Under the pieces are notes generated by a model, which was given only the letters and a program-made list of their open reading frames with translations, was not told where the DNA came from and did no database searches. A stretch of 64,000 bases of DNA, from the NCBI GenBank assembly GCA_016776925.1, contig JADHSL010000001.1, forward strand, positions 28,311 to 92,310. The letters run 5' to 3'. Numbering within the stretch: the first letter of the stretch is position 1; the number at the start of each line of letters is the position of its first letter. The position numbers were made by a program, and so were the translations under genes. Shown here in pieces: positions 14,501 through 62,743 of the stretch. Origin of the DNA: Pirellulales bacterium. GTDB lineage: Bacteria; Planctomycetota; Planctomycetia; Pirellulales; UBA1268.

Positions 14501-16186
14501 ATGGGTTCAGAAAAAAAAGGACACGATCGCCTGATGACGGAGCGATCGCAACTTGAAGAAGCTCAGGATGCCGGTATTGGACGTACACTGGCAACGTACA
14601 CGCGGCTGTCGGGACCTGGTTGGTTGCAATCAGCCATAACGCTCGGTGGTGGATCTCTGGCAGGATCGCTTTATTTGGGAGTCATTGGTGGCTATGAGTT
14701 CCTCTGGCTGCAGCCCCTCATGATGATTCTCGGGATCGTAATGCTTTCTGCAATTGCGTACGTGACCCTTTCGACTGGGAAGCGACCGTTTCAGGCTATG
14801 AATGAGCATGTTAGTCCGGTGCTCGGTTGGGGCTGGCTTCTTGCTGCAATGATGGCAAACCTTGTCTGGGCAATGCCCCAGTTTTCTTTGGGTACAGCAG
14901 CGCTTCAGCAGAATTTATTTCCACACTATCTTGCTGGTGATTCTGCAAAAGTTATTTGCGTTCTTGGTTTGTTTCTGATTGCAACGGCAGTGGTTTGGTT
15001 TTATGACTCACCAGGATGGGGAGTTCGTGTCTTTGAGTTATCTCTCAAAGCAATGGTTGGTCTTGTAGTGCTTAGTTTTTTTGGCGTTGTGGTAGCAATG
15101 TCCTGGAAAGGTGAGTTGGATTGGATGAGTATTGCGAAAGGTTTTGTGCCGGATCTCAGCCTTCTTTGGCGTCCTGTAACTGGACTGCATGGCTTTATTG
15201 ATGAATCGAGTGCTCGTGATTATTGGACCACCACAATTCTTCACGCGCAACGGGAACGAATGATAGCCGCTGCCGCTACTGCAGTGGGAATTAATATGAC
15301 GTTTTTGTTGCCATACTCGATGCTTCGGAAGGGCTGGGATCGTGCTTTTCGAGGACTTGCAGCTTTCGATCTTTCAACAGGCCTCTTTATTCCATTTCTT
15401 GTTGCAACAAGCTGTGTTGTGATTGCTGCTGCCAGCCAGTTTCATGCTCAGTTTGATGAAAGAATTATCAGTCAGCCTGCTGCTGATACTGCCGGTTCAT
15501 ATAGAGATAACCTTGAAAAAAGAGTCAGGGCGGAGTCCGGCTCAGAGGATCGTTCTGTCCTCAGTGAGTCAGAGATGAATGCAAAGATCGATGCTTTGCC
15601 GTCAGCAGATCGAAAGCTCGCATATATGCTTATCAAGAGAGATTCTCTCGATCTTGCAACTGCTTTAGAAAACCTGTTCGGGAAGGGTGGTCTTACACAA
15701 AAAGTTTTTGGTATTGGCGTTCTTGGGATGGCTATTTCAACGATAGTGATTTTGATGGTTATTAATGGATTCTGTGTTACTGAGATGACAGGGCGTGATA
15801 GTGACCGAGTTGTTCAGCGGCTCGGTGCACTATTTCCAGGTGTTGTTGGTGGTCTTGGATTCCTTGCCTTGTGGGGAGATGATCAGGCAAGGTTCTGGCT
15901 TGCGGTGCCTACAAGTAATTTTGGCATGGTGCTTTTACCAATTGCATACATCGCATTCTTTTTCATGATGAATAGCCCATCTTTGCTCGGTGATGCAATG
16001 CCCAGAGGTCTGTTACGAGTTGTTGTCAATGTCGTAATGCTTGTTGCGATTATTGCTGCGAGTATCGGCGCTGGCTTGAGCGTATGGGCGAACGTCGGTT
16101 GGATTGGTGTAGTCTTTGCAGCCGTATTTGTTGTGATTAGCGTAGTCAATGCGGGTTCAAAACGACCAGCATTGAAACAACACTAA
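14501..16186 (+). CDS. NRAMP-fold transporter, divergent (canonical metal site not conserved)
   Basis: 561 aa. TM1 aligns by eye with MntH (GPGWLQSAITLGGGSL versus GPAFIAAIGYIDPGNF; GYEFLW versus GYQLLW). About 11 hydrophobic spans. Confidence 0.65.
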   Translation: MGSEKKGHDRLMTERSQLEEAQDAGIGRTLATYTRLSGPGWLQSAITLGGGSLAGSLYLGVIGGYEFLWLQPLMMILGIVMLSAIAYVTLSTGKRPFQAMNEHVSPVLGWGWLLAAMMANLVWAMPQFSLGTAALQQNLFPHYLAGDSAKVICVLGLFLIATAVVWFYDSPGWGVRVFELSLKAMVGLVVLSFFGVVVAMSWKGELDWMSIAKGFVPDLSLLWRPVTGLHGFIDESSARDYWTTTILHAQRERMIAAAATAVGINMTFLLPYSMLRKGWDRAFRGLAAFDLSTGLFIPFLVATSCVVIAAASQFHAQFDERIISQPAADTAGSYRDNLEKRVRAESGSEDRSVLSESEMNAKIDALPSADRKLAYMLIKRDSLDLATALENLFGKGGLTQKVFGIGVLGMAISTIVILMVINGFCVTEMTGRDSDRVVQRLGALFPGVVGGLGFLALWGDDQARFWLAVPTSNFGMVLLPIAYIAFFFMMNSPSLLGDAMPRGLLRVVVNVVMLVAIIAASIGAGLSVWANVGWIGVVFAAVFVVISVVNAGSKRPALKQH

Positions 16187-27615: not shown

Positions 27616-29796
27616 CTATGCATTCCGCGGAGTATAGGTGACCTCAAAAATAATTGATGAGGCCACGGTGTTGCCAAAGTTTGGTTGGTCTGCGGCAATA
27701 CCCCCAAACATGTATCCAAGTACAGTCTCCGTGGTTAAAGAGTCGAGGTCGATGATGCCATCAGTTAGTACAGGAGCATCATGGGCTGGGAAGAAGCGGG
27801 CATTGGCACCAAAATAAAGAAGTTTTCCATTGCCATCATAAACATTTGGGAAATCGGTTATGTATTGTTGCCGATATGTACCAGATGCATCCCGCAACGC
27901 CGCTGTTATTTGCCTGTGAAAGCCATTGTTCTCGTCGTACGTGAGTTGCTCCGTAACTGAGTCGAATGTATTTGCTGAAATACCACCGAGAAGGACTTGA
28001 GTCATCTCTCCAGAGTTCTGGGAGTAAAGTCCGATTTTGCCAGATTCATACTGGTTCATAGCCTGCCTAAACACGTCGGGCTCAGTTGTCGGGTTTTCGG
28101 TTGTTGGGATACCGTCTGATCCGATTTCAACCGGCACAGTCCACACCCCTACGCCGTTGTAGAAAACACCAGCCAATGCAACAGTACTCTTCGTAGTGCC
28201 ACCCTGATCGTTGGGTGAAAGAATTGGGAACACATTCAAATCACGGCGACGAAACCGGCTTGGGTCTCCACCTGAAGGAGCAATATCAACGTTACTATAA
28301 GAAAGAGTTCCATTAGTGAAGTCATAATCAATATCAAAACTGCGAACCTGGGAGGTATAGACTTGGAAAGTCGTTGATCCGTGTGCGTACGGACCTTCAA
28401 ACTTCTGTCCAAAAACCAGTTGATAGCGATTTCCTATTTTTTCCAAGCCTCCGCCAGTCACCTGAAAAAACCCACCATCATACGAGCCGTCAGGAGACTC
28501 TTCTCCAGCAACCTGTACGATGGTATTTGTGTGGAGCGTTTCATCTGTCCCTTTGACCCAATCTACAAGTGTTGGTAGATCGATAGCTGAAAGCGCATTG
28601 TAGGTTGTGAAGTTATTAATCGCACGAGAGTAAACGTATCCACCCACGACATATAGCGTGTTTCCATCCTGGTAAGACTCGGTGTTGGTTGATGACAAAC
28701 TGTCGATTTCACTCGAAGTAAGACCGCTGCTGGTATCGTCCAGTGAGCGACTCCATGTCTCCTTCGATACTGGGTCAATAACCCACACGTCGGTGTTTTG
28801 GTACCTCGGTGGAAAATTGGCTAACCCGTCATCAGAGAAACCATGGAGTCCATTGGTGCGACCAGCAATGAGCACCCACTGGCCGTTGTAAATGCCACCG
28901 GCAAACGATTGAAGTGTTGGGACCGATACTGTTCCCATGTCATATTCAGCAAAAGTAAGGTCGTAGTCACCAGACCAATTCGTTACCTGACTAAAAGTAG
29001 GTGTCTGGTCCTTCGAGGGTGCTGCTGAAATGCTTGAAGTTGGTCCCGTTACATGCGCATCTGTATCTGTTGCCCAGACCCAGAATGTGTATGGGACACC
29101 GGTTTCCAGGTCTGAAACGTTTTTACTAGTGGATGTTGTTATGAATGTCGTGTTCGTTGATCCATTGTCAATTGTCACTGTGTAATTCAACGAGCCAACA
29201 AATGATGCTGGTGGGTCCCAGCTAACCGTCAATGAATTTGCGTCTTCTGATTGGCCAAATCTCAGATTTTGAACCTCGGAGGGCGCTTCGATGGATGGTG
29301 GAGTTATTGGGTTTCCATCATCCCATCCAACAACATCAAACGCCTTGTCGAAGTCCAGTGGGCTTGTTGACTGCGAAGGCGTCCACTGGATGCGGTCGCC
29401 TTGCTGGATCAGACGGAGTTGAAGTAACTTGAGAAGTTCCATCGGATTCGATGTGGTTGGAACTGCTGAGACGTTTACCCAGCGTTCTGTTGCTGGTAGC
29501 CATTTTTCTACAACACCGTTTGCGACAGATGTAATAACAAAGCTATTAGTTTCGTCTCCAATAATCTCAGACTTGTTCATTATTATCGGTGCCGGACCGA
29601 TTAGCGAATTTAAATAGACAGAATCTGTTTGTTCTAACGGCGGGCGGGAAACAGTGCCTGTATCTGCAGCAAGTGCGAGACGGTTTTCAAGAAGTTCAAG
29701 GCTGCCGAGTCTCTGCTGAGCAGGTGCTTGAAGAAGAGCAGTAGGCCTCACTGTATTACTAAAAAAAAACTTTTTATTTCCAAAAAAACGCTTCAT
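27616..29796 (-). CDS. large secreted protein with an FN3-like segment and Kelch/beta-propeller-like repeats
   Basis: I place the start at the ATG at 29796 (MKRFFGNKKFFFSN...). N-terminal LELLENRLALAAD motif, FN3-like LTVSWDPP...YTFWVWA, and repeats such as YVVGGY and FQVTGGG. Confidence 0.55.
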   Translation of the reverse strand: MKRFFGNKKFFFSNTVRPTALLQAPAQQRLGSLELLENRLALAADTGTVSRPPLEQTDSVYLNSLIGPAPIIMNKSEIIGDETNSFVITSVANGVVEKWLPATERWVNVSAVPTTSNPMELLKLLQLRLIQQGDRIQWTPSQSTSPLDFDKAFDVVGWDDGNPITPPSIEAPSEVQNLRFGQSEDANSLTVSWDPPASFVGSLNYTVTIDNGSTNTTFITTSTSKNVSDLETGVPYTFWVWATDTDAHVTGPTSSISAAPSKDQTPTFSQVTNWSGDYDLTFAEYDMGTVSVPTLQSFAGGIYNGQWVLIAGRTNGLHGFSDDGLANFPPRYQNTDVWVIDPVSKETWSRSLDDTSSGLTSSEIDSLSSTNTESYQDGNTLYVVGGYVYSRAINNFTTYNALSAIDLPTLVDWVKGTDETLHTNTIVQVAGEESPDGSYDGGFFQVTGGGLEKIGNRYQLVFGQKFEGPYAHGSTTFQVYTSQVRSFDIDYDFTNGTLSYSNVDIAPSGGDPSRFRRRDLNVFPILSPNDQGGTTKSTVALAGVFYNGVGVWTVPVEIGSDGIPTTENPTTEPDVFRQAMNQYESGKIGLYSQNSGEMTQVLLGGISANTFDSVTEQLTYDENNGFHRQITAALRDASGTYRQQYITDFPNVYDGNGKLLYFGANARFFPAHDAPVLTDGIIDLDSLTTETVLGYMFGGIAADQPNFGNTVASSIIFEVTYTPRNA

Positions 29797-38910: not shown

Positions 38911-39357
38911 ATGCCAGCGTTTATCCAAAAAGAATCCGGGGGCTTTGCCGATAACGCGGTAGGGCACGGTTCGCAGGCAATTCTTGAGGTAGCAGAACGG
39001 CTCTTCGCTGCTGAACCAGACTGGATCGTTTTTTTTCGTGAGATAATGGGTCTTGATGGCATAGTTCGGCGGACCTATCAGACTCCAGACTCTCTCATGC
39101 GTTTTGAGTGTTCCACTGAATATGCACGAATTCGTGAAATGTTGGATGCTCTGCGGCAGAAACAGCAGGAAAAATCACCAGTTCGGGAAGCACAGCGTGT
39201 TGTCACTGTCAGGATGCCCATGTCACTTCACGAAACACTCAAAGCAGAGGCTCAGGAGATGAATGTGAGCATCAACAAGCTCTGTATCTCAAAATTGCTC
39301 AAATTACTGGATGAAAATGCATGCCGGGACCTCGTGCCCGAAGAGCACATCGAATGA
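38911..39357 (+). CDS. protein with a C-terminal ribbon-helix-helix (HicB/Arc-like) domain
   Basis: 148 aa. VVTVRMPMSLHETLKAEAQEMNVSINKLCISKLL matches the RHH pattern. No toxin partner is adjacent. Confidence 0.5.
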   Translation: MPAFIQKESGGFADNAVGHGSQAILEVAERLFAAEPDWIVFFREIMGLDGIVRRTYQTPDSLMRFECSTEYARIREMLDALRQKQQEKSPVREAQRVVTVRMPMSLHETLKAEAQEMNVSINKLCISKLLKLLDENACRDLVPEEHIE

Positions 39358-54907: not shown

Positions 54908-56482
54908 TTATTCAGAAACCGGATTGTGGGTCGGATTATCTTGTAATTGCCTTGACAGTTTCCAATCTCGTCGCTGCCGTGAACTTGGGATATTCATTGC
55001 TTTTCGATATTTGGTGACTGTTCTACGTGCGACAGTGATGCCCTGCTTCGCAAGTTCCTCAACTAGTTCATCATCACTAAATGGCTTTTCTTTGGATTCG
55101 TCGAGGACAATCTCTTGAAGCTTTTTACGAACTGCGTCCCAGGCAACTTCACCGCCGTCGGCGTTTACCGTGCCACCAACAAAGAATTTCCGTAGTGGGA
55201 AAAGTCCTCGTGGTGTCTGAAGCCATTTGTCGTCAACAGCACGGCTCACGGTGGTGACATGCATACCTATACGATCAGCAATTTGTTGCATTTTCAGCGG
55301 CTCGATCGCTTCTGGACCCTCACTAAAAAAGCGAGTTTGGTGATCAACAATAGCCTGTGCCGTTTTGAGTAGGGTGCCTCGTCTTTGCTCAATGGCCTCT
55401 ATAAGCCATTGCGCAGAATTGATTTTCCGTTTGATATATTCCCTGGTCTGAGCGTCCGTATCAGAAGATTGTAGAATTCGCCTATACGTTGGGCTAATGC
55501 GAAGGCTTGGCAGGTCAACGTCTTCAAGCCGAACTTTCCATGTGCCATCGGTTTGCTGTTCAGCAAAGACATCAGGTTTTACAGGTGGTACAAGGGGCGT
55601 AGTGAAGATCGCGCCGGGCTTCGGATCAAGACTGTGCAGAATGTCACGAAGGTTTTCGATTTCTTCGATCGTAAGTCCCGTTTTGCGCTCAATTAGCGGG
55701 AGTCGGTTTGCCGCAAGATTTTCAAGATGATCCTGAATGAGTTGTCGAATGTGCGCAGCATAAGCCACTTCGTCTGGAACCTGCAGGAGGAGGCACTCTT
55801 TGAGATCACGGCCGCCGACACCTCGCGGATCCATGCTTTGCACGATATGAAGACCTGATTCAAGGAGTGATTTTTGTTCTTTGAAGAAAGCTTCCTTGTC
55901 TTCGACCAAAGACTGTCCAGTTGAGTCTGTTGGTGGAGCATCCACGAGTTCGTCAAGAGGCATTGGTAGGTATCCATTTGCATCAAGATTAAAGATGACT
56001 TTATCGGCAGCTTTCTGAATTTCCGGCGATGTTTCGTAATTAGCCAACTGGTCATGGAGATGGTTGAAGAGGGTCTCAGGGCGATCTTCCATGTTCGCAA
56101 TCGTGTCAAAATAGCGATCGGAGGTTTCCTCGCTTCGGCCTGCTGAAGGCCGTCGTCTATCTTCGTCAGTATCTGGATATTCGTTTGACCAATCGTATGA
56201 CCGCTCAAAGTCGTCTTTGTTCGCATGTTCCTGGTCGACGACAAGGGGTTGTTCAGAAGCTGTTGTTTGTGCTGCCTCTGTGGGAGTCTCAACAGGAGCG
56301 TTACTATCGATCTCAGGCTCAACTAATTCGAGCGTTTCATTATTTTGGATTTCCTGTTCGATTCGCTCTTCCAGAGCCAGTAGCGGGAGTTGAAGGATTT
56401 CCATGGACTGGATCATTCGGGGCGAAAGCACTTGCTTTTGCGCCATCCGCATCTCCTGACCAAAAGACATCCGCATCGACAT
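54908..56482 (-). CDS. rpoN: RNA polymerase sigma-54 factor
   Basis: QKQVLSPRMIQSMEILQLPLLALEERIEQE (region I) and the RpoN box ARRTVTKYR. I place the start at the ATG at 56482; the longer track ORF would overlap recR. Confidence 0.9.
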   Translation of the reverse strand: MSMRMSFGQEMRMAQKQVLSPRMIQSMEILQLPLLALEERIEQEIQNNETLELVEPEIDSNAPVETPTEAAQTTASEQPLVVDQEHANKDDFERSYDWSNEYPDTDEDRRRPSAGRSEETSDRYFDTIANMEDRPETLFNHLHDQLANYETSPEIQKAADKVIFNLDANGYLPMPLDELVDAPPTDSTGQSLVEDKEAFFKEQKSLLESGLHIVQSMDPRGVGGRDLKECLLLQVPDEVAYAAHIRQLIQDHLENLAANRLPLIERKTGLTIEEIENLRDILHSLDPKPGAIFTTPLVPPVKPDVFAEQQTDGTWKVRLEDVDLPSLRISPTYRRILQSSDTDAQTREYIKRKINSAQWLIEAIEQRRGTLLKTAQAIVDHQTRFFSEGPEAIEPLKMQQIADRIGMHVTTVSRAVDDKWLQTPRGLFPLRKFFVGGTVNADGGEVAWDAVRKKLQEIVLDESKEKPFSDDELVEELAKQGITVARRTVTKYRKAMNIPSSRQRRDWKLSRQLQDNPTHNPVSE

Positions 56483-56600
56483 GGGGTTACCGCTTGCTAA
56501 GAATATGGTGGTGTACACTCGTGTCGACCGAGTCGACGACGACTCTTCAAGCATACCATTCCTGATATCTTTCAGGATGAACCAATTGATACCTGAATTC

Positions 56601-57200
56601 TCAAAATGGCTGTCGGCTTGCGATAGCATCAGCCAGCATGTCTCGATTTGCTTGTTCTAGAGAGGCTCCTACCGTCAGCCCCCGGGCGAGACGGGTGATC
56701 GTTATTGGAAGTCCGGCGAGACGGGTCGCGATAGCGAGTGCCGTGCCATCCCCCTCAACATTTGGGGTTGTGCCCATGATGACTTCATGAATCACGCCTT
56801 CTTTGAGTCGAGCCACAAGTTTGTTGATCGATAATTGTTCCGGGCCAACTCCATCGAGGGGGGATAATCGTCCTTGTAGAACGTGATAGACCCCGCGAAA
56901 ACTGCCCGCCTGCTCTATCGCGAGAAGGTCTCGCACCTGTTCAACAACACACAAGACGTTTTGATCGCGGCGAGGATCCTTGCAGATGTCGCATTCCTCA
57001 TTTTCTGAAAGGTTGAAGCAGGTTTTACATGGTCTCAGATTTTCTTTAACAGCTCGGATACTTTCGGCAAATTCGAGCGCCTCCTCATTGGGCATTTTAA
57101 GAACATGGTAAGCAAGCCGCTCAGCACTCTTTTTACCGATACTTGGGAGACTGGCAAAAGCATCGATCAATCGACTGATCGGCGAATTCGATTGAGCCAT
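56601..57200 (-). CDS. recR: recombination protein RecR
   Basis: 199 aa. HhH N-terminus, zinc finger CKTCFNLSENEECDIC, Toprim domain. Confidence 0.92.
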   Translation of the reverse strand: MAQSNSPISRLIDAFASLPSIGKKSAERLAYHVLKMPNEEALEFAESIRAVKENLRPCKTCFNLSENEECDICKDPRRDQNVLCVVEQVRDLLAIEQAGSFRGVYHVLQGRLSPLDGVGPEQLSINKLVARLKEGVIHEVIMGTTPNVEGDGTALAIATRLAGLPITITRLARGLTVGASLEQANRDMLADAIASRQPF

Positions 57201-59008
57201 TATGTTGCTCCGCTTTCTTCCGTATTGGTTTCTTCTGCTTCACCCATGTCTTGGTGCGAGTTGACTGGCTTTCTTGGTGGATCAACTTTTCGAATGGCCG
57301 CATCAAAGGTTGTCAGGGCATGACTTACAAGTGGGTTCTGTACGGTCTCTTTAAGAAGACCGGCAGAAGATATGACCGTTTTCTTAGACGGCGTTGATTG
57401 TTTGCTGGACGAGCCATTCTGAGCAGGAATAGACCCCGAAGAATTTGTGGTTCCTTTTTCCTGAAGAACAACTGAATAACGGCAGGATTGACCCGTGAGG
57501 GTTTCCAATGCGCTTTGAAACTGTTTGGTGATTTCATTCCGACTCAGGAAAGCAGTTGCGGATCCTGCCGATGCCGGGAACTCGATCTTGAAATGGCTTG
57601 CCTCTTGTGAGACTGAGGCGGCCATGGCAGCAAAGTCGCTGGCAAGCCCCCCAACTAGTTCTCCTGCATTTTTCCAGATGACGAGTGGCTCAGCGCCTAC
57701 GCTGGGCGTAGTTGTTTTGTCTGCTGTCCAGGAGTTTGGCGTTTTTGCTTTGACGCTTGAAGAGGTCGCGGGTGCGGTTTGATCCGCCTTGTCGGCTTTT
57801 TGGTTAGTTGTTGGCGTCAGCTTTTTTTTTTCGTGCCGAAGTGGTTGTTTTTTTTCTTCGGTTGGTTGTATTCCTGAAATTATCTCACTGAGATTGTCGA
57901 GATCTTCAAGTGCGGCAAGACGAACAATTGCCATTTCGGCAAGAACGGTTGTGTGCGTGCTCAGCCGCATTCGTGCAAGTGAATGATCAATGATCTGAAG
58001 CATGGCAAGCATAGTTGCTGTTCCCGCTTGCTTGCCAAGTTCTGCAAAGTCGACACCACACGAAGTGCTGCCGATAAATGTTTCAGGCCCACAGCCTACG
58101 CTAGCAACTAAGCAATTACGGAGAGCGGTGAGCAGTTGTTCAAGTACTCCTCCAGCATCAGCTCCCTGTGTAAGGCACTCGTGGAGTGCAGATAGCGCCG
58201 CAGGAGAGTCTCGGTTGATAAGTGCTTGAGCAAGTTCACCAACTTTTTCATCTTTGCCCGTCCCGGTAATAGCATGAACATCTTCAAGCTCAATGTTCTT
58301 CTTATCACCAGCTGCGATTCCAAAAAGTTGCTCGAGTAGGGACTGGCTGTCTCGCATGCTACCAGCTGCTCGTCGAGCAATGAGTTCAAGTGCAGCAGGT
58401 GCGACTGTCAGGCCTTCACTCTCGACTATTTGTGCAAGGCGTTGTGCGATGGCGACCGTATCAACAGACTGAAAGTCAAATCGCTGACACCGAGACAAAA
58501 TGGTAATAGGTAGTTTCTCTGGCTCTGTGGTGCAGAGTACAAATTTCACATGAGGTGGCGGTTCCTCGAGGGTTTTCAAGAGTGCGTTGAACGCCTCTCT
58601 AGTTAGCATGTGAACTTCGTCAATAATGTATGTCTTGTGGTTGCCGTTCGCTGGCCTTACAGCAACGTTCTGTCGCAGTTGACGAATTTCATCGATTCCT
58701 CGGTTACTCGCTGCATCGATTTCAATTACATCCACGTCTTGTCCAGCGGAAATCGCCTGACAGCGTTCACAAAGATTGCAAGGTTCACCGGATTTCCGAT
58801 TGGTGCACTCGAGTGCTTTGGCGTAGATGCGAGCCGCACTTGTTTTCCCAACGCCTCGGGCACCGGTGAAGAGGTAGGCGTGGCCAACGCGGCCGGAATC
58901 GATCGCTCCGGCAAGCCCGCGAGCAACATGTTCTTGACCAATTAAATCAGCGAATTGCTGTGGCCGATACCGGCGAGCAACAACCTGATAGGCAGCCGGA
59001 TCAGCCAT
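57200..59008 (-). CDS. dnaX: DNA polymerase III subunit tau (and possibly gamma)
   Basis: RYRPQQFADLIGQEH, Walker A GARGVGKTS, zinc module CNLCERC, box VII SRCQRF. I place the start at the ATG at 59008, because the longer track ORF overlaps the SRP RNA. Confidence 0.92.
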   Translation of the reverse strand: MADPAAYQVVARRYRPQQFADLIGQEHVARGLAGAIDSGRVGHAYLFTGARGVGKTSAARIYAKALECTNRKSGEPCNLCERCQAISAGQDVDVIEIDAASNRGIDEIRQLRQNVAVRPANGNHKTYIIDEVHMLTREAFNALLKTLEEPPPHVKFVLCTTEPEKLPITILSRCQRFDFQSVDTVAIAQRLAQIVESEGLTVAPAALELIARRAAGSMRDSQSLLEQLFGIAAGDKKNIELEDVHAITGTGKDEKVGELAQALINRDSPAALSALHECLTQGADAGGVLEQLLTALRNCLVASVGCGPETFIGSTSCGVDFAELGKQAGTATMLAMLQIIDHSLARMRLSTHTTVLAEMAIVRLAALEDLDNLSEIISGIQPTEEKKQPLRHEKKKLTPTTNQKADKADQTAPATSSSVKAKTPNSWTADKTTTPSVGAEPLVIWKNAGELVGGLASDFAAMAASVSQEASHFKIEFPASAGSATAFLSRNEITKQFQSALETLTGQSCRYSVVLQEKGTTNSSGSIPAQNGSSSKQSTPSKKTVISSAGLLKETVQNPLVSHALTTFDAAIRKVDPPRKPVNSHQDMGEAEETNTEESGAT

Positions 59009-59094
59009 TGCACTCACTGATTTGGATAAAAAATGAAAAAACGCATTTGACGGGGGTTTCAAAGCCCTTATTGCGCAGGAAAATCTGCGAATCA

Positions 59095-59212
59095 GAGCGA
59101 CTGCCGATGAGAGGCCCACCGCACAAAGAGACGACTGCTTATGGCTGCTGCGGTTAAGCCCTGACCAGGTTCGCAGGCCTCCATCGCAGGGGCCCCTCAT
59201 CGGCCTCCGCTC
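59095..59212 (-). ncRNA. ffs: signal recognition particle RNA (4.5S type)
   Basis: The minus strand carries GAACCTGGTCAGGGC....GCAGCAGCCATAAG (domain IV motifs GGUCAGG / AGCAGCC). The termini pair (GCCGATGAGGGGCCC with GGGCCTCTCATCGGC). It sits in the classic position upstream of dnaX. The apical loop is atypical (CTTAAC). Confidence 0.75.
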
Positions 59213-59266
59213 TCACTAAGTTTTACGTCCTTCTCGCGGTTCGGTAAAGGCTGCTACATTCCTGAC

Positions 59267-61849
59267 ATGGCTTCCCCCATGATGCAACAATTTGAGGCAG
59301 CGAAGGCCCGTTGTCCGGGCGCTCTGGTACTGTTCCGGATGGGGGACTTTTATGAACTTTTCGGAGACGATGCAAAACGAGCAGCGGAACTACTTGACCT
59401 CACTCTGACCAGTAGAGACAAGGGACCAAATGCAACCCCGATGGCCGGCTTTCCACACCATCAGCTAGATCCACAACTCGTGAAACTTGTTGCGGCTGGG
59501 GAACACGTCGCAATTTGTGAACAAATAGATGACCCAAAAACGACGAAAGGTCTTCTGCGGCGTGAGGTGACGCGGATTGTTACTCCTGGGATCGCTTCAG
59601 ATGAATCGTTGCTTCAGCCTGATAGAGCAAACCATCTTGTAGCGATTGCGCCGGAGGCTCTTCTGTCACAAGAGAATTCTGGCAAAGAATTGTCTGAGCG
59701 TGACGCGACTATTGGAATTGCATGGATCGATGTTTCGGTTGGTCGCTTTCAAGCAGCAGTTCGAAATCTTGAAGAATTAAAAGATCATCTGTTGAGGCTT
59801 GATGCATCTGAGATACTTTGTAGTGAACGGGATCGGTCGTTTATAGAAAAAATCCTTGCTGAATCTGGAATCAAAACAGTATTGACTGTACGGCCTGAAT
59901 GGTGGTTTGAGGATAAGCAGGCTGAAGCAAAGGTGACCTCGGCAATTGGTAGCCTTCGTTTCGATGGGCTGGGATTTAATCTACCGGAAGAACAGTTGGC
60001 ACTCACTGCGGCTGGAGGAATCCTTGCATATCTCGATGAAAATGAACCGGCAGCAATCGGTCGTATTAAGACTCTTGCAGCCTGGAGGTCGGGATCACGG
60101 ATGGAAATTGATGAAGCAACTCGGCGGAGTTTGGAACTTATACGAGGATCTTCGCAGTCTGGACATCGTCGAGATGGTTCGCTGGCTGGTGTCTTTGGAA
60201 AAACGCGTTCGGCTATGGGGAGCCGGCTTCTGGTCGATTGGCTGAGTGCTCCGTTGGTTGAGAAAACTGCAATTGATGAACGAATAGACGCAGTCTCCGT
60301 TCTTGTGGATCACCCCGGTATTGCTAGTCAACTGACAGCAACACTTCAGGGCGTCGGTGATATTGAGCGATTGATAGGACGTGTAATGTCAGGTCGAGCA
60401 GGACCGCGAGACATTGAGCGAATCGGTCACGTCACAAAGATTCTACCGGAATTAATCACATTGCTTGGTAAGGCGGGTGCACTTGTGGCAACAGATGCCC
60501 CCAACGGGTCTACGCTACTGGCTAATTTCGGTGATCATCTTGATCCGTGTTTCGATCTTTCAAAGAAAATTATGGCAACGCTTCGTGATGGCTGTCCGAC
60601 GTTTGCTCGTGATGGTGGTTTCATCCGGCCAGGATTTGATAGTCGCTACGATGAGTTCGTCGAACTCGCGACAGGTGGAAAGGCGTGGATTGCGAAATAT
60701 CAAGCCTCAGAGAGTGAGCGGACGGGCATTCCAAGACTGAAGGTCGGGTTTAACCGTGTATTTGGATTCTTCCTGGAAGTTGGTCGAGGATATTCAGACA
60801 AAGTACCTTCCGAATATGTTCGTAAGCAGACCGTGAAAAATGCTGAACGATATACGACACCAGAACTTGATGAACGGCAGCGACAAGTTCTCGGTGCCGA
60901 GGAAGAAGGTGTTCGTCGTGAACTTGAACTTTTTGAGGACTTGCGAAATTTTGTAGCACATCATCGGGAGCGTCTGGATAATGTCGCGGAGCAGGTAGCA
61001 ACAGTTGATGTACTTTTGACCTTTGCGGATGTGGCCAGGTCGCGTCGATGGGTTCGGGCTGACATTTCTAATGACTCGGTACTTGCTATCGATCAGGGGC
61101 GACATCCAGTACTTGAGCAATTGTTGCCTGCAGGCACGTTGGTGCCGAATGATCTGGCGCTTGTTGGGAGACGTGCGGAGGGTGCTGGTGAGAATTCTCT
61201 TCCTTCGATCTTGTTAGTTACCGGACCAAATATGGGTGGGAAAAGCACGTTCATCAGGCAGGCCGCGTTACTCGCAGTCCTGGCTCAGGCCGGCTCATTT
61301 GTGCCGGCAAAGGCAGCGAGGATTGGAATAGTTGACAGATTATTCGCCCGAATTGGGGCTGGTGATGATCTTGCCAGCGGCGCGAGTACGTTTCTTGTTG
61401 AAATGTCACAGACAGCACGTATTCTCAACAGGGCCACTGAGAAAAGCCTGGTGATTCTGGATGAGGTTGGCCGGGGTACAAGCACATTCGACGGTCTCGC
61501 TTTGGCTCAGTCTGTCGTTGAGTACCTCTATAAAAAGCTGTATTGCAGGACTTTATTTGCAACGCATTATCTTCAGCTTGCAGCGCTCGAGAAATACTCA
61601 GGCGTCGCGAATGCCAAGGTTCTTGTCGAACAGCATGAAGGACAACTGATTTTTCTTCATCAGGTTACTTCAGGTGCGGCAGATAAAAGTTGGGGAGTGC
61701 ATGTCGCCAGGCTTGCTGGTGTTCCCGATGCTGTTATTAATAGGGCCAGGGATCTGTTACTCGCATACGAAGCTGGTGGAACACAGAAGTCTCCAAAAGC
61801 AAAACGTTCCCACGGTTCAAGCGAAGGACAGTCACTTTTATTTGACTAA
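59267..61849 (+). CDS. mutS: DNA mismatch repair protein MutS
   Basis: 860 aa. N-terminal MMQQF...FYELF mismatch-binding motif, Walker A GPNMGGKST, DEVGRGTSTFDG. Confidence 0.95.
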   Translation: MASPMMQQFEAAKARCPGALVLFRMGDFYELFGDDAKRAAELLDLTLTSRDKGPNATPMAGFPHHQLDPQLVKLVAAGEHVAICEQIDDPKTTKGLLRREVTRIVTPGIASDESLLQPDRANHLVAIAPEALLSQENSGKELSERDATIGIAWIDVSVGRFQAAVRNLEELKDHLLRLDASEILCSERDRSFIEKILAESGIKTVLTVRPEWWFEDKQAEAKVTSAIGSLRFDGLGFNLPEEQLALTAAGGILAYLDENEPAAIGRIKTLAAWRSGSRMEIDEATRRSLELIRGSSQSGHRRDGSLAGVFGKTRSAMGSRLLVDWLSAPLVEKTAIDERIDAVSVLVDHPGIASQLTATLQGVGDIERLIGRVMSGRAGPRDIERIGHVTKILPELITLLGKAGALVATDAPNGSTLLANFGDHLDPCFDLSKKIMATLRDGCPTFARDGGFIRPGFDSRYDEFVELATGGKAWIAKYQASESERTGIPRLKVGFNRVFGFFLEVGRGYSDKVPSEYVRKQTVKNAERYTTPELDERQRQVLGAEEEGVRRELELFEDLRNFVAHHRERLDNVAEQVATVDVLLTFADVARSRRWVRADISNDSVLAIDQGRHPVLEQLLPAGTLVPNDLALVGRRAEGAGENSLPSILLVTGPNMGGKSTFIRQAALLAVLAQAGSFVPAKAARIGIVDRLFARIGAGDDLASGASTFLVEMSQTARILNRATEKSLVILDEVGRGTSTFDGLALAQSVVEYLYKKLYCRTLFATHYLQLAALEKYSGVANAKVLVEQHEGQLIFLHQVTSGAADKSWGVHVARLAGVPDAVINRARDLLLAYEAGGTQKSPKAKRSHGSSEGQSLLFD

Positions 61850-62743
61850 TTAATGGCGGCCGACGTGAGGCTTTGAGTCGAAGTGGTGGCGGATAGTATT
61901 CAGTATCGCAGCCGATATGTTTTCCTGTGTCACCGTTTGAAGTGCCTGCCAACCCGGGACTGCATTGACTTCAAGTACCCATGGTGATCCATCACTGCCA
62001 GGTAATATGTCAACGCCAGCAATGTTGGCACCAAGTGCATGAGCAGCTAAATGAGCGAGTTGGAGCCATTCTTTCGGCGGAGTAAATGATTCAGCTCGTC
62101 CGCCACATGAGATGTTTGTCCGCCATTCGCCGTCTGCGGCAACTCGTCTCATTGCAAATGCCTCAGAACCAACAACAAGAATACGTGCATCCCAACCAGC
62201 ATTGGCAATGTGCTCTTGGGCTACGGCCACACCAGCTTCAGAAAAAAAAGGAGGAAGCTGTTTTGTGTCTCCTTCAAACAGGACAAGTCCTTGACCATTG
62301 GACCCAAAAATAGGCTTGAGCACCGCAACGCCACCGAATTCATCAGCACAACTTCTGAGGTCCGTAGATGATTGGACAATCGCTGACCGGGGAACGGGTA
62401 TTCCAGCATCCATGAGCCGTGTCGTTGTCACATATTTATCAATAGCTGATTCCAGAGATTTGGGATTGTTGAGTACGACGCTCCCTCTATTGGAAAGTCG
62501 TGCAAGCATGTCCATGCGGCTGATGACCTGCTCGAGTGTTCCTGCAGGCATGGTGCGGACCAAGATTGCATCTGCGTTGTGAAGAGAAGCCGGACGAAAG
62601 CGTTCCCCCTGCCTATCAGCAAAGGATCCTATTGTCCCCCAGTCGATTACAGAGCAGCAGATGTTTTGGGAAGAGCACGCCTTAAGAAGTTCGGCGACAT
62701 GCCAACTCTTGGCCGACCCTAGTATGGCGAGCGACGAAAGCAT
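61850..62743 (-). CDS. RimK-type ATP-grasp ligase, candidate tetrahydromethanopterin:alpha-L-glutamate ligase (MptN-like)
   Basis: 297 aa. VLKPIFGSNGQGLVLFEG and AGVDILPGSDGSPWVLEVNAVPGW. Immediately downstream of mch. Confidence 0.65.
   Translation of the reverse strand: MLSSLAILGSAKSWHVAELLKACSSQNICCSVIDWGTIGSFADRQGERFRPASLHNADAILVRTMPAGTLEQVISRMDMLARLSNRGSVVLNNPKSLESAIDKYVTTTRLMDAGIPVPRSAIVQSSTDLRSCADEFGGVAVLKPIFGSNGQGLVLFEGDTKQLPPFFSEAGVAVAQEHIANAGWDARILVVGSEAFAMRRVAADGEWRTNISCGGRAESFTPPKEWLQLAHLAAHALGANIAGVDILPGSDGSPWVLEVNAVPGWQALQTVTQENISAAILNTIRHHFDSKPHVGRH

Follow-up and report, generated by a model that had tools for sequence, protein, structure and literature searches.

Three unrelated routes are known by which bacteria obtain gamma, the shortened form of the clamp-loader subunit tau encoded by dnaX, and their existence has been cited as evidence that gamma matters. 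Here we describe the dnaX gene of an uncultured marine member of Pirellulales, carried on a stretch of 64,000 nucleotides (nt) from contig JADHSL010000001.1 (assembly GCA_016776925.1, positions 28,311 to 92,310), which was analysed as a whole and is referred to below as the window. A run of ten adenines (A10) in this gene is probably a selected recoding site that allows one dnaX to supply two clamp-loader subunits, most likely through slippage of RNA polymerase.

The closest described system is that of Thermus thermophilus, in which gamma arises by transcriptional slippage on a run of nine adenines (Larsen et al. 2000, as related in PMC1088944 and PMC5009743). Its described hallmark is the presence of nearby stops in both non-zero frames, and gaining or losing A's in numbers other than multiples of three leads to a truncated gamma. 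In Escherichia coli dnaX, the slippery site is A6G, accompanied by the motif AGGGAG and by a strong hairpin 6 nt downstream. In Caulobacter crescentus, gamma is produced by partial ClpXP proteolysis of tau, as cited in PMC5009743 and bioRxiv 10.1101/2022.11.10.516041. Finally, dnaX genes split into two open reading frames (ORFs) with runs of A10 or shorter occur in Chlorobi and others; there it is tau that needs a change of frame, and transcriptional realignment has been proposed (Antonov et al. 2013, PMC3711429). Screens for disrupted ORFs cannot detect a layout in which tau occupies the zero frame (PMC4066793), and because previous genome-wide screens left out genes whose product is shortened by the shift (PMC4066793 among the sources), single-ORF dnaX genes with an A-run have not been surveyed.

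The dnaX gene and its A10 tract

The window gene and the elements around its A-run are as follows.

57200..59008, minus strand: dnaX coding sequence (ATG at 59006-59008, TAA at 57200-57202), 602 amino acids (aa), 64.1 kDa; the zero-frame product is a full-length tau-like subunit
57822..57831, minus strand (T10 on the plus strand): A10 tract, the proposed slippage site; codons 393-396 read GAA AAA AAA AAG
57821..57827, minus strand: heptamer A AAA AAG in the zero-frame X XXY YYZ register, a possible site of ribosomal -1 shifting
57817..57819, minus strand: TGA stop of the +1 frame, 1 codon on (AGC TGA); product of 396 aa ending EKKS
57804..57806, minus strand: TAA stop of the -1 frame, 5 codons on (GCT GAC GCC AAC AAC TAA); product of 401 aa ending KKKADANN
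57200..57820, minus strand: tau-only part, codons 397-602 and the stop; a variable linker and then a conserved C-terminal region, which a gamma-like product would lack

The encoded protein is identified as DnaX both by its clamp-loader domains I-III of the AAA+ type (residues 25-377; Pfam PF13177, PF22608 and PF12169, with domain III at 240-377) and by gamma/tau similarity over the full length. The NCBIfam gamma/tau equivalog NF004046 aligns with residues 6-552 at 474.7 bits against a cutoff of 400, TIGR02397 is a second NCBIfam match, and more than 100 near-identical full-length homologs were found. The A10 tract lies 16 codons beyond the end of Pfam domain III and 66% along the protein. An mRNA with one extra A would use the -1 frame stop, as would a ribosome after a -1 shift, and an mRNA with one A fewer or two extra would use the +1 frame stop. 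The original prediction, made from the letters of this stretch, had described the codons at 393-396, the A10 run with the exact E. coli heptamer, a product of about 401 aa after a -1 shift, the sequence AGC TGA after a +1 shift and a second tract of eight A's 16 nt upstream, and each of these descriptions holds.

The A10 tract is the longest homopolymer of the window. Dinucleotide-preserving shuffles contain a mean of 0.72 A10 or T10 runs per window, and 38 of 100 hold at least one, so the run alone is not beyond chance and the argument has to come from comparison with relatives. At 3% of random codons in the window dnaX, the two alternative frames are closed as quickly as they are after the tract. 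The significance of the A10 tract is in its location and conservation, not in its presence.

The locus shares several features with the Thermus system. It has at least nine A's on the sense strand, placed downstream of domains I-III so that the gamma core is kept; tau is encoded in a single uninterrupted ORF; and stops are near in both non-zero frames. This combination is the published description of the Thermus site, and it is for this reason that transcriptional slippage is favoured here. Unlike in Thermus, the window run is an A10 that ends in G and hence also contains the E. coli heptamer, the site stands at 66% of the protein rather than at about seven-eighths, and the phylum is Planctomycetota; slippage was demonstrated experimentally in Thermus, whereas here it is predicted from sequence. 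To our knowledge, the Thermus site needs no Shine-Dalgarno-like or hairpin stimulator.

The resemblance to the other systems is more partial. As in two-ORF dnaX genes, an A-run of about ten stands at the gamma/tau boundary, but in the window the zero frame encodes tau, and it is a shift that yields the short products. As in Caulobacter, two DnaX forms would come from one gene, the short form being without the C-terminal domains, but the Caulobacter mechanism is post-translational and involves no slippery sequence. With E. coli dnaX the locus shares A AAA AAG in the same register, an early -1 stop and a gamma that would end after domain III at about two-thirds of tau.

Conservation of the run and of the two closed frames

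A clade sample of 64 metagenome loci was obtained with an alignment of the C-terminal part of DnaX only, and 61 of these loci have sequence over the linker. A scan with the full-length alignment matched generic AAA+ motifs and returned dnaX from all Bacteria; 80 of these genome loci were kept as a broad background. In 57 of the 61 clade loci the hypervariable linker contains an A9 or A10 run, which starts 13-214 nt after the end of domain III, and in the protein alignment EKKK is nearly invariant amid an otherwise unalignable linker. The run is kept in lineages with a guanine-plus-cytosine (GC) content of 58-76%, including those at 70-75%, and it extends to Gemmata, Planctomycetaceae, Phycisphaerales and the cultured Aporhodopirellula aestuarii ICT_H3.1 (L010), where an A10 is followed by C. 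Its length is A9-A11 among the broader loci, and the shortest run is an A8 in a locus of Sedimentisphaerales (L068). In most relatives the run is an A9 with a C next to it; the heptamer is kept as A AAA AAG only in the subclades with A10 followed by G, and the sequence of the A9 subclades is A AAA AAA C.

Codon usage shows that selection at the A-run acts on the nucleotides and not on the peptide. In 36 high-GC loci, only 17% of lysines outside the run are encoded by AAA and 30% of glutamates by GAA, and yet all runs in these loci read xAA AAA AAA and are thus built of rare codons. The peptides encoded by the run vary by lineage (EKKK, EKKT, QKKT, EKKM, EKKN, AKKN and SKKN). As to location, none of the 80 broadly sampled dnaX genes has a run of at least eight A's inside domains I-III, and every run of at least nine sits downstream of domain III, mostly at codons 381-424.

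The stops in the alternative frames are retained along with the run. Throughout the marine clade, the -1 stop lies invariably 5 codons past the run while switching among TAA, TGA and TAG, and the +1 frame reads AGC TGA or AGC TAA with a sole exception, L082. High-GC lineages have other sequence downstream (A9-CGACCGACCTGA and others), and in these the +1 stop comes about 3 codons on and the -1 stop 9-14 codons on, as compared with null medians of 40-125 codons for alternative-frame closure in the same genes. Overall, at least eight distinct downstream sequences close both frames, and a codon picked at random from the same gene would show both closures with a probability of about 2% (median of 53 distinct loci). 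In L082, CCG stands in place of CTG directly after the A10 (Leu to Pro), the +1 stop is lost and the next one is 41 codons away.

Similar arrangements were seen at single loci of other phyla. Runs of A9-A11 at dnaX codons 387-422, with both frames closing within 0-8 codons, are present in L019 (Desulfobacteraceae), L022 and L024 (Ignavibacteriota), L035 (Bacteroidota) and L062 (Fibrobacteria). No such A-run was seen in the Firmicutes, Nitrospira and Chloroflexi dnaX loci of the background set. A further A10 in L015 (Trichlorobacter sp., around position 1820) falls at dnaX codon 514 with 45 zero-frame residues left, which is not the gamma/tau boundary.

Predicted products of slippage

RNA polymerase transcribing the T10 template would slip and give rise to mRNAs with varying numbers of A's. 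Those with 10 or 13 A's would encode full-length tau, and those with 9, 11, 12 or 14 would enter the other frames, which are closed within 1-5 codons, to give gamma-like proteins of 396-402 aa and about 43 kDa. These short forms would stop just past domain III and would lack the tau-only C-terminal region. The predicted products are:

10 A's: tau, 602 aa, 64.1 kDa, full length
13 A's: tau with one extra Lys, 603 aa, 64.3 kDa, full length
9 A's: gamma-like, 396 aa, 42.7 kDa, ending EKKS
12 A's: gamma-like, 397 aa, 42.8 kDa, ending EKKKS
11 A's: gamma-like, 401 aa, 43.2 kDa, ending EKKKADANN
14 A's: gamma-like, 402 aa, 43.3 kDa, ending EKKKKADANN

With A AAA AAG at the end of the tract, part of the 401-aa form may come from ribosomal -1 shifting. 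The occurrence of slippage, its efficiency and a gamma function of the short product are what we infer from the sequence comparisons. A shortened gamma-like DnaX had been called plausible in the original prediction, through either -1 frameshifting as in E. coli or slippage on the A-run as in Thermus, and the conserved run, the conserved stops and the nucleotide-level selection lend support to that suggestion; the check that it had named, conservation of the tract and of both near stops in related genomes, was carried out, and the A9/A10 run and the two alternative-frame stops are kept across Planctomycetota.

Several observations weigh against this explanation. The clade loci are phylogenetically related, and the counts given above are therefore not counts of independent events. 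In the low-GC clade the -1 stop is only mildly nearer than the null (5 codons versus a median of about 10). The tract is not universal in the phylum, as L003 and L007 (both Thermoguttaceae) and L013 (Candidatus Scalindua) have no run of at least eight A's after domain III. The subclade of the window, like the other A10-G subclades, strictly conserves A AAA AAG in register, and the bare heptamer is reported to yield about 14-16% -1 shifting with E. coli ribosomes in vitro. A translational contribution in the window subclade, even a dominant one, is possible.

Ribosomal frameshifting as an alternative

The best-surviving alternative is that programmed -1 ribosomal frameshifting of the E. coli type is the main mechanism, with tRNA-Lys slipping back by one base on A AAA AAG to produce a single gamma of 401 aa. 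In addition to the strictly kept heptamer and its activity in vitro, this would be in line with the marine-clade -1 stop, which stays fixed at 5 codons despite its changing stop codon. The stimulators that accompany the E. coli site are nevertheless missing. The same pipeline applied as a control to the verified E. coli dnaX recovered AGGGAG at -16 to -10 and a hairpin of -19.7 kcal/mol (z = -2.0). In the 25 nt upstream of the tract, a Shine-Dalgarno-like motif (GGAG, GAGG, AGGA or AGGG) is absent from the window and from most relatives, and no stable stem-loop was found in the downstream 45 nt of the window (-4.9 kcal/mol, z = -0.3). Across the clade, folds upstream and downstream of the tract have a mean z of -0.3 each. 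The Rfam DnaX frameshifting element was not matched either (cmscan over 56000-60000 at E <= 1, which returned only the signal recognition particle (SRP) RNA).

The pattern among relatives points in the same direction. They conserve the length of the A-run rather than a heptamer ending in G, and the sequence in most of them is A AAA AAA C, reportedly much less prone to shifting than A AAA AAG. Ribosomal shifting requires no more than 7 bases and leaves unexplained why the run is almost never shorter than 9; it also leaves unexplained why the +1 stop is more tightly conserved than the -1 stop. We therefore regard ribosomal frameshifting as an unlikely main mechanism. Because of the missing E. 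coli stimulators, the missing Rfam match and the prevalence of A9-C among relatives, the site resembles the Thermus case. The emphasis of the original prediction on an E. coli-type site stands as far as the exact heptamer is concerned, but not for the rest of the E. coli arrangement.

Tract-length variants in the same population

Public assemblies of the same species-level population contain about 6 contigs with a variant tract, compared with about 105 with the full-length allele. Outside the tract, the variant contigs are 98.7-99.5% identical to the window. The three A9 contigs, L148, L149 and L150, span 14-35 kb and match the window at 99.4-99.5% identity with the tract as the sole gap, and L150 is covered at 27.5x; their product of 396 aa is exactly that predicted for 9 A's. 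The A11 state is found in L145, P0125 and P0128. In L145, L146, L148, L149 and L150 (proteins P0098, P0118, P0121, P0123, P0125 and P0128), the A9 or A11 tract splits dnaX into an ORF of 396-400 aa and an orphan ORF of 141 aa, and annotation pipelines would label such genes truncated. For the truncated proteins in the databases, an A9 or A11 is indeed present in the DNA. The metagenomes from which L145 and L148-L150 derive are ERR2098377, ERZ806364, EMOS17-1 and ERR599001. If real, contigs L145 and L148-L150 have exactly the layout of the two-ORF dnaX genes.

These contigs are what favours a second alternative, in which the tract is a hypermutable DNA locus where replication slippage converts A10 to A9 or A11, and the in-frame product differs among cells or strains. 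The A9 state is scattered over different single-nucleotide-polymorphism haplotypes, and the absence of a common haplotype indicates that the A9 variants are recurrent events. Recurrence could reflect true hypermutation at the tract or a homopolymer that is miscalled time and again, and miscalls or a chimeric consensus fit the lack of a common haplotype equally well; one variant contig is covered at only 1.4x. Moreover, tau is reported to be essential in the bacteria that have been studied, and a frameshifted allele would therefore be viable only with recoding, so that hypermutability adds to the slippage explanation and does not replace it. As a substitute for that explanation, we consider hypermutability very unlikely.

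If the A9 and A11 alleles are real, tau in those strains must come from recoding. The A11 allele could not be rescued by -1 frameshifting, and only +1 ribosomal shifting or transcriptional slippage would do so. A bolder scenario, which we put forward only as a speculation with the odds against it, is that A9, A10 and A11 alleles coexist in one marine Pirellulales population, that tau and gamma swap the roles of 'standard' and 'recoded' product among them and that essential tau is secured by slippage that is very efficient both ways; on a broader scale, slippage on an A-run beyond domain III might be the commonest bacterial route to gamma.

That the tract has no recoding function at all, being a lysine-rich linker motif or a chance run with incidental stops, would agree with the one A10 per 64 kb expected by chance in AA/TT-rich sequence and with the fair frequency of out-of-frame stops at 49% GC (null medians of 11 and 19 codons in the window gene), but it is barely credible given a run that persists at 70-75% GC against codon usage while the peptide changes, its confinement to the region downstream of domains I-III, and frames that close in 3-14 codons where the null would allow many more.

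Novelty and implications

In a full-text literature search, no paper connected dnaX slippage with Planctomycetes. Thermus already provides both the mechanism and its biological logic; what is new, as judged from that search, is the occurrence in Planctomycetota. An A-run like that of Thermus has been retained at the gamma/tau boundary, against strong GC pressure, across a phylum with unusual cell biology, and such retention strengthens the case for gamma being under selection. It also suggests that gamma production in the Thermus manner extends far beyond the few cases published, as the single loci in other phyla likewise hint. The cultured A. aestuarii is an organism in which the prediction can be tested. 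For annotation, the implication is that a dnaX gene split at the tract in metagenome bins is not automatically a pseudogene.

Neighbouring sequence elements and genes

Two further elements adjoin the A10 tract, and an RNA gene lies upstream of dnaX.

57848..57855, minus strand: A8 tract, 16 nt upstream of the A10
57836..57861, minus strand: hairpin CCGAAG-N14-CTTCGG, -6.4 kcal/mol, z = -3.4 to -3.7 against shuffles; it stops 4 nt short of the A10, and its loop contains the A8
59103-59201, minus strand: SRP RNA gene (ffs, bacterial small SRP RNA), 49.5 bits in Rfam (gathering score 40), separated from the dnaX start by 94 nt

Slippage at the A8 tract would, by computation, meet the same two stops as slippage at the A10. 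An A8 or A9 at this position is found only in the nearest relatives and in L092, and elsewhere the position has A6 or no run; the A8 tract is probably not a selected element. The hairpin was considered as a stimulator of slippage and rejected, as it is confined to the closest relatives and upstream folds in the clade do not differ from shuffles. In L087, L088, L091 and L096, the 8 codons between the A8 and the A10 are absent (DEKKKLTP instead of EEKKQPLRHEKKKLTP), which looks like a deletion between the two A-runs, and the sole remaining run is still an A10.

Other A/T runs of 8-9 nt in the window (14511-14518, 29761-29769, 39029-39036 and 62242-62249) are located either at the very ends of long ORFs or within short ORFs of doubtful status and are for that reason probably intergenic; two of the four precede GGA or GGAGG. 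Among the long A-runs, only the two dnaX tracts fall clearly within a confirmed gene. The T10 was also considered as a terminator or promoter, and nothing of either kind is present at the tract.

The C-terminal region of the tau-only part is covered only by the full-length NCBIfam models and has no match in Pfam (E <= 10) or in a profile search of PDB sequences; conserved blocks are nonetheless visible downstream of the linker in the DnaX alignment. At the other end of the protein, homologs share the N-terminal start MADPAAYQ with the window DnaX in the protein alignment. This shared start, together with the SRP RNA gene upstream, identifies the ATG at 59008 as the real start of dnaX, and the longest-ORF call (666 aa, start at 59200) is wrong because that ORF crosses ffs.

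On the downstream side, the dnaX stop overlaps the recR start in TAATG at 57198-57202 (minus strand), and this overlap makes translational coupling of the two genes probable. No ybaB/ebfC-like gene stands between dnaX and recR. The longest rpoN (sigma-54) ORF overlaps the 3' end of recR at 56601-56629, and the only tRNA within the window is a tRNA-Met.

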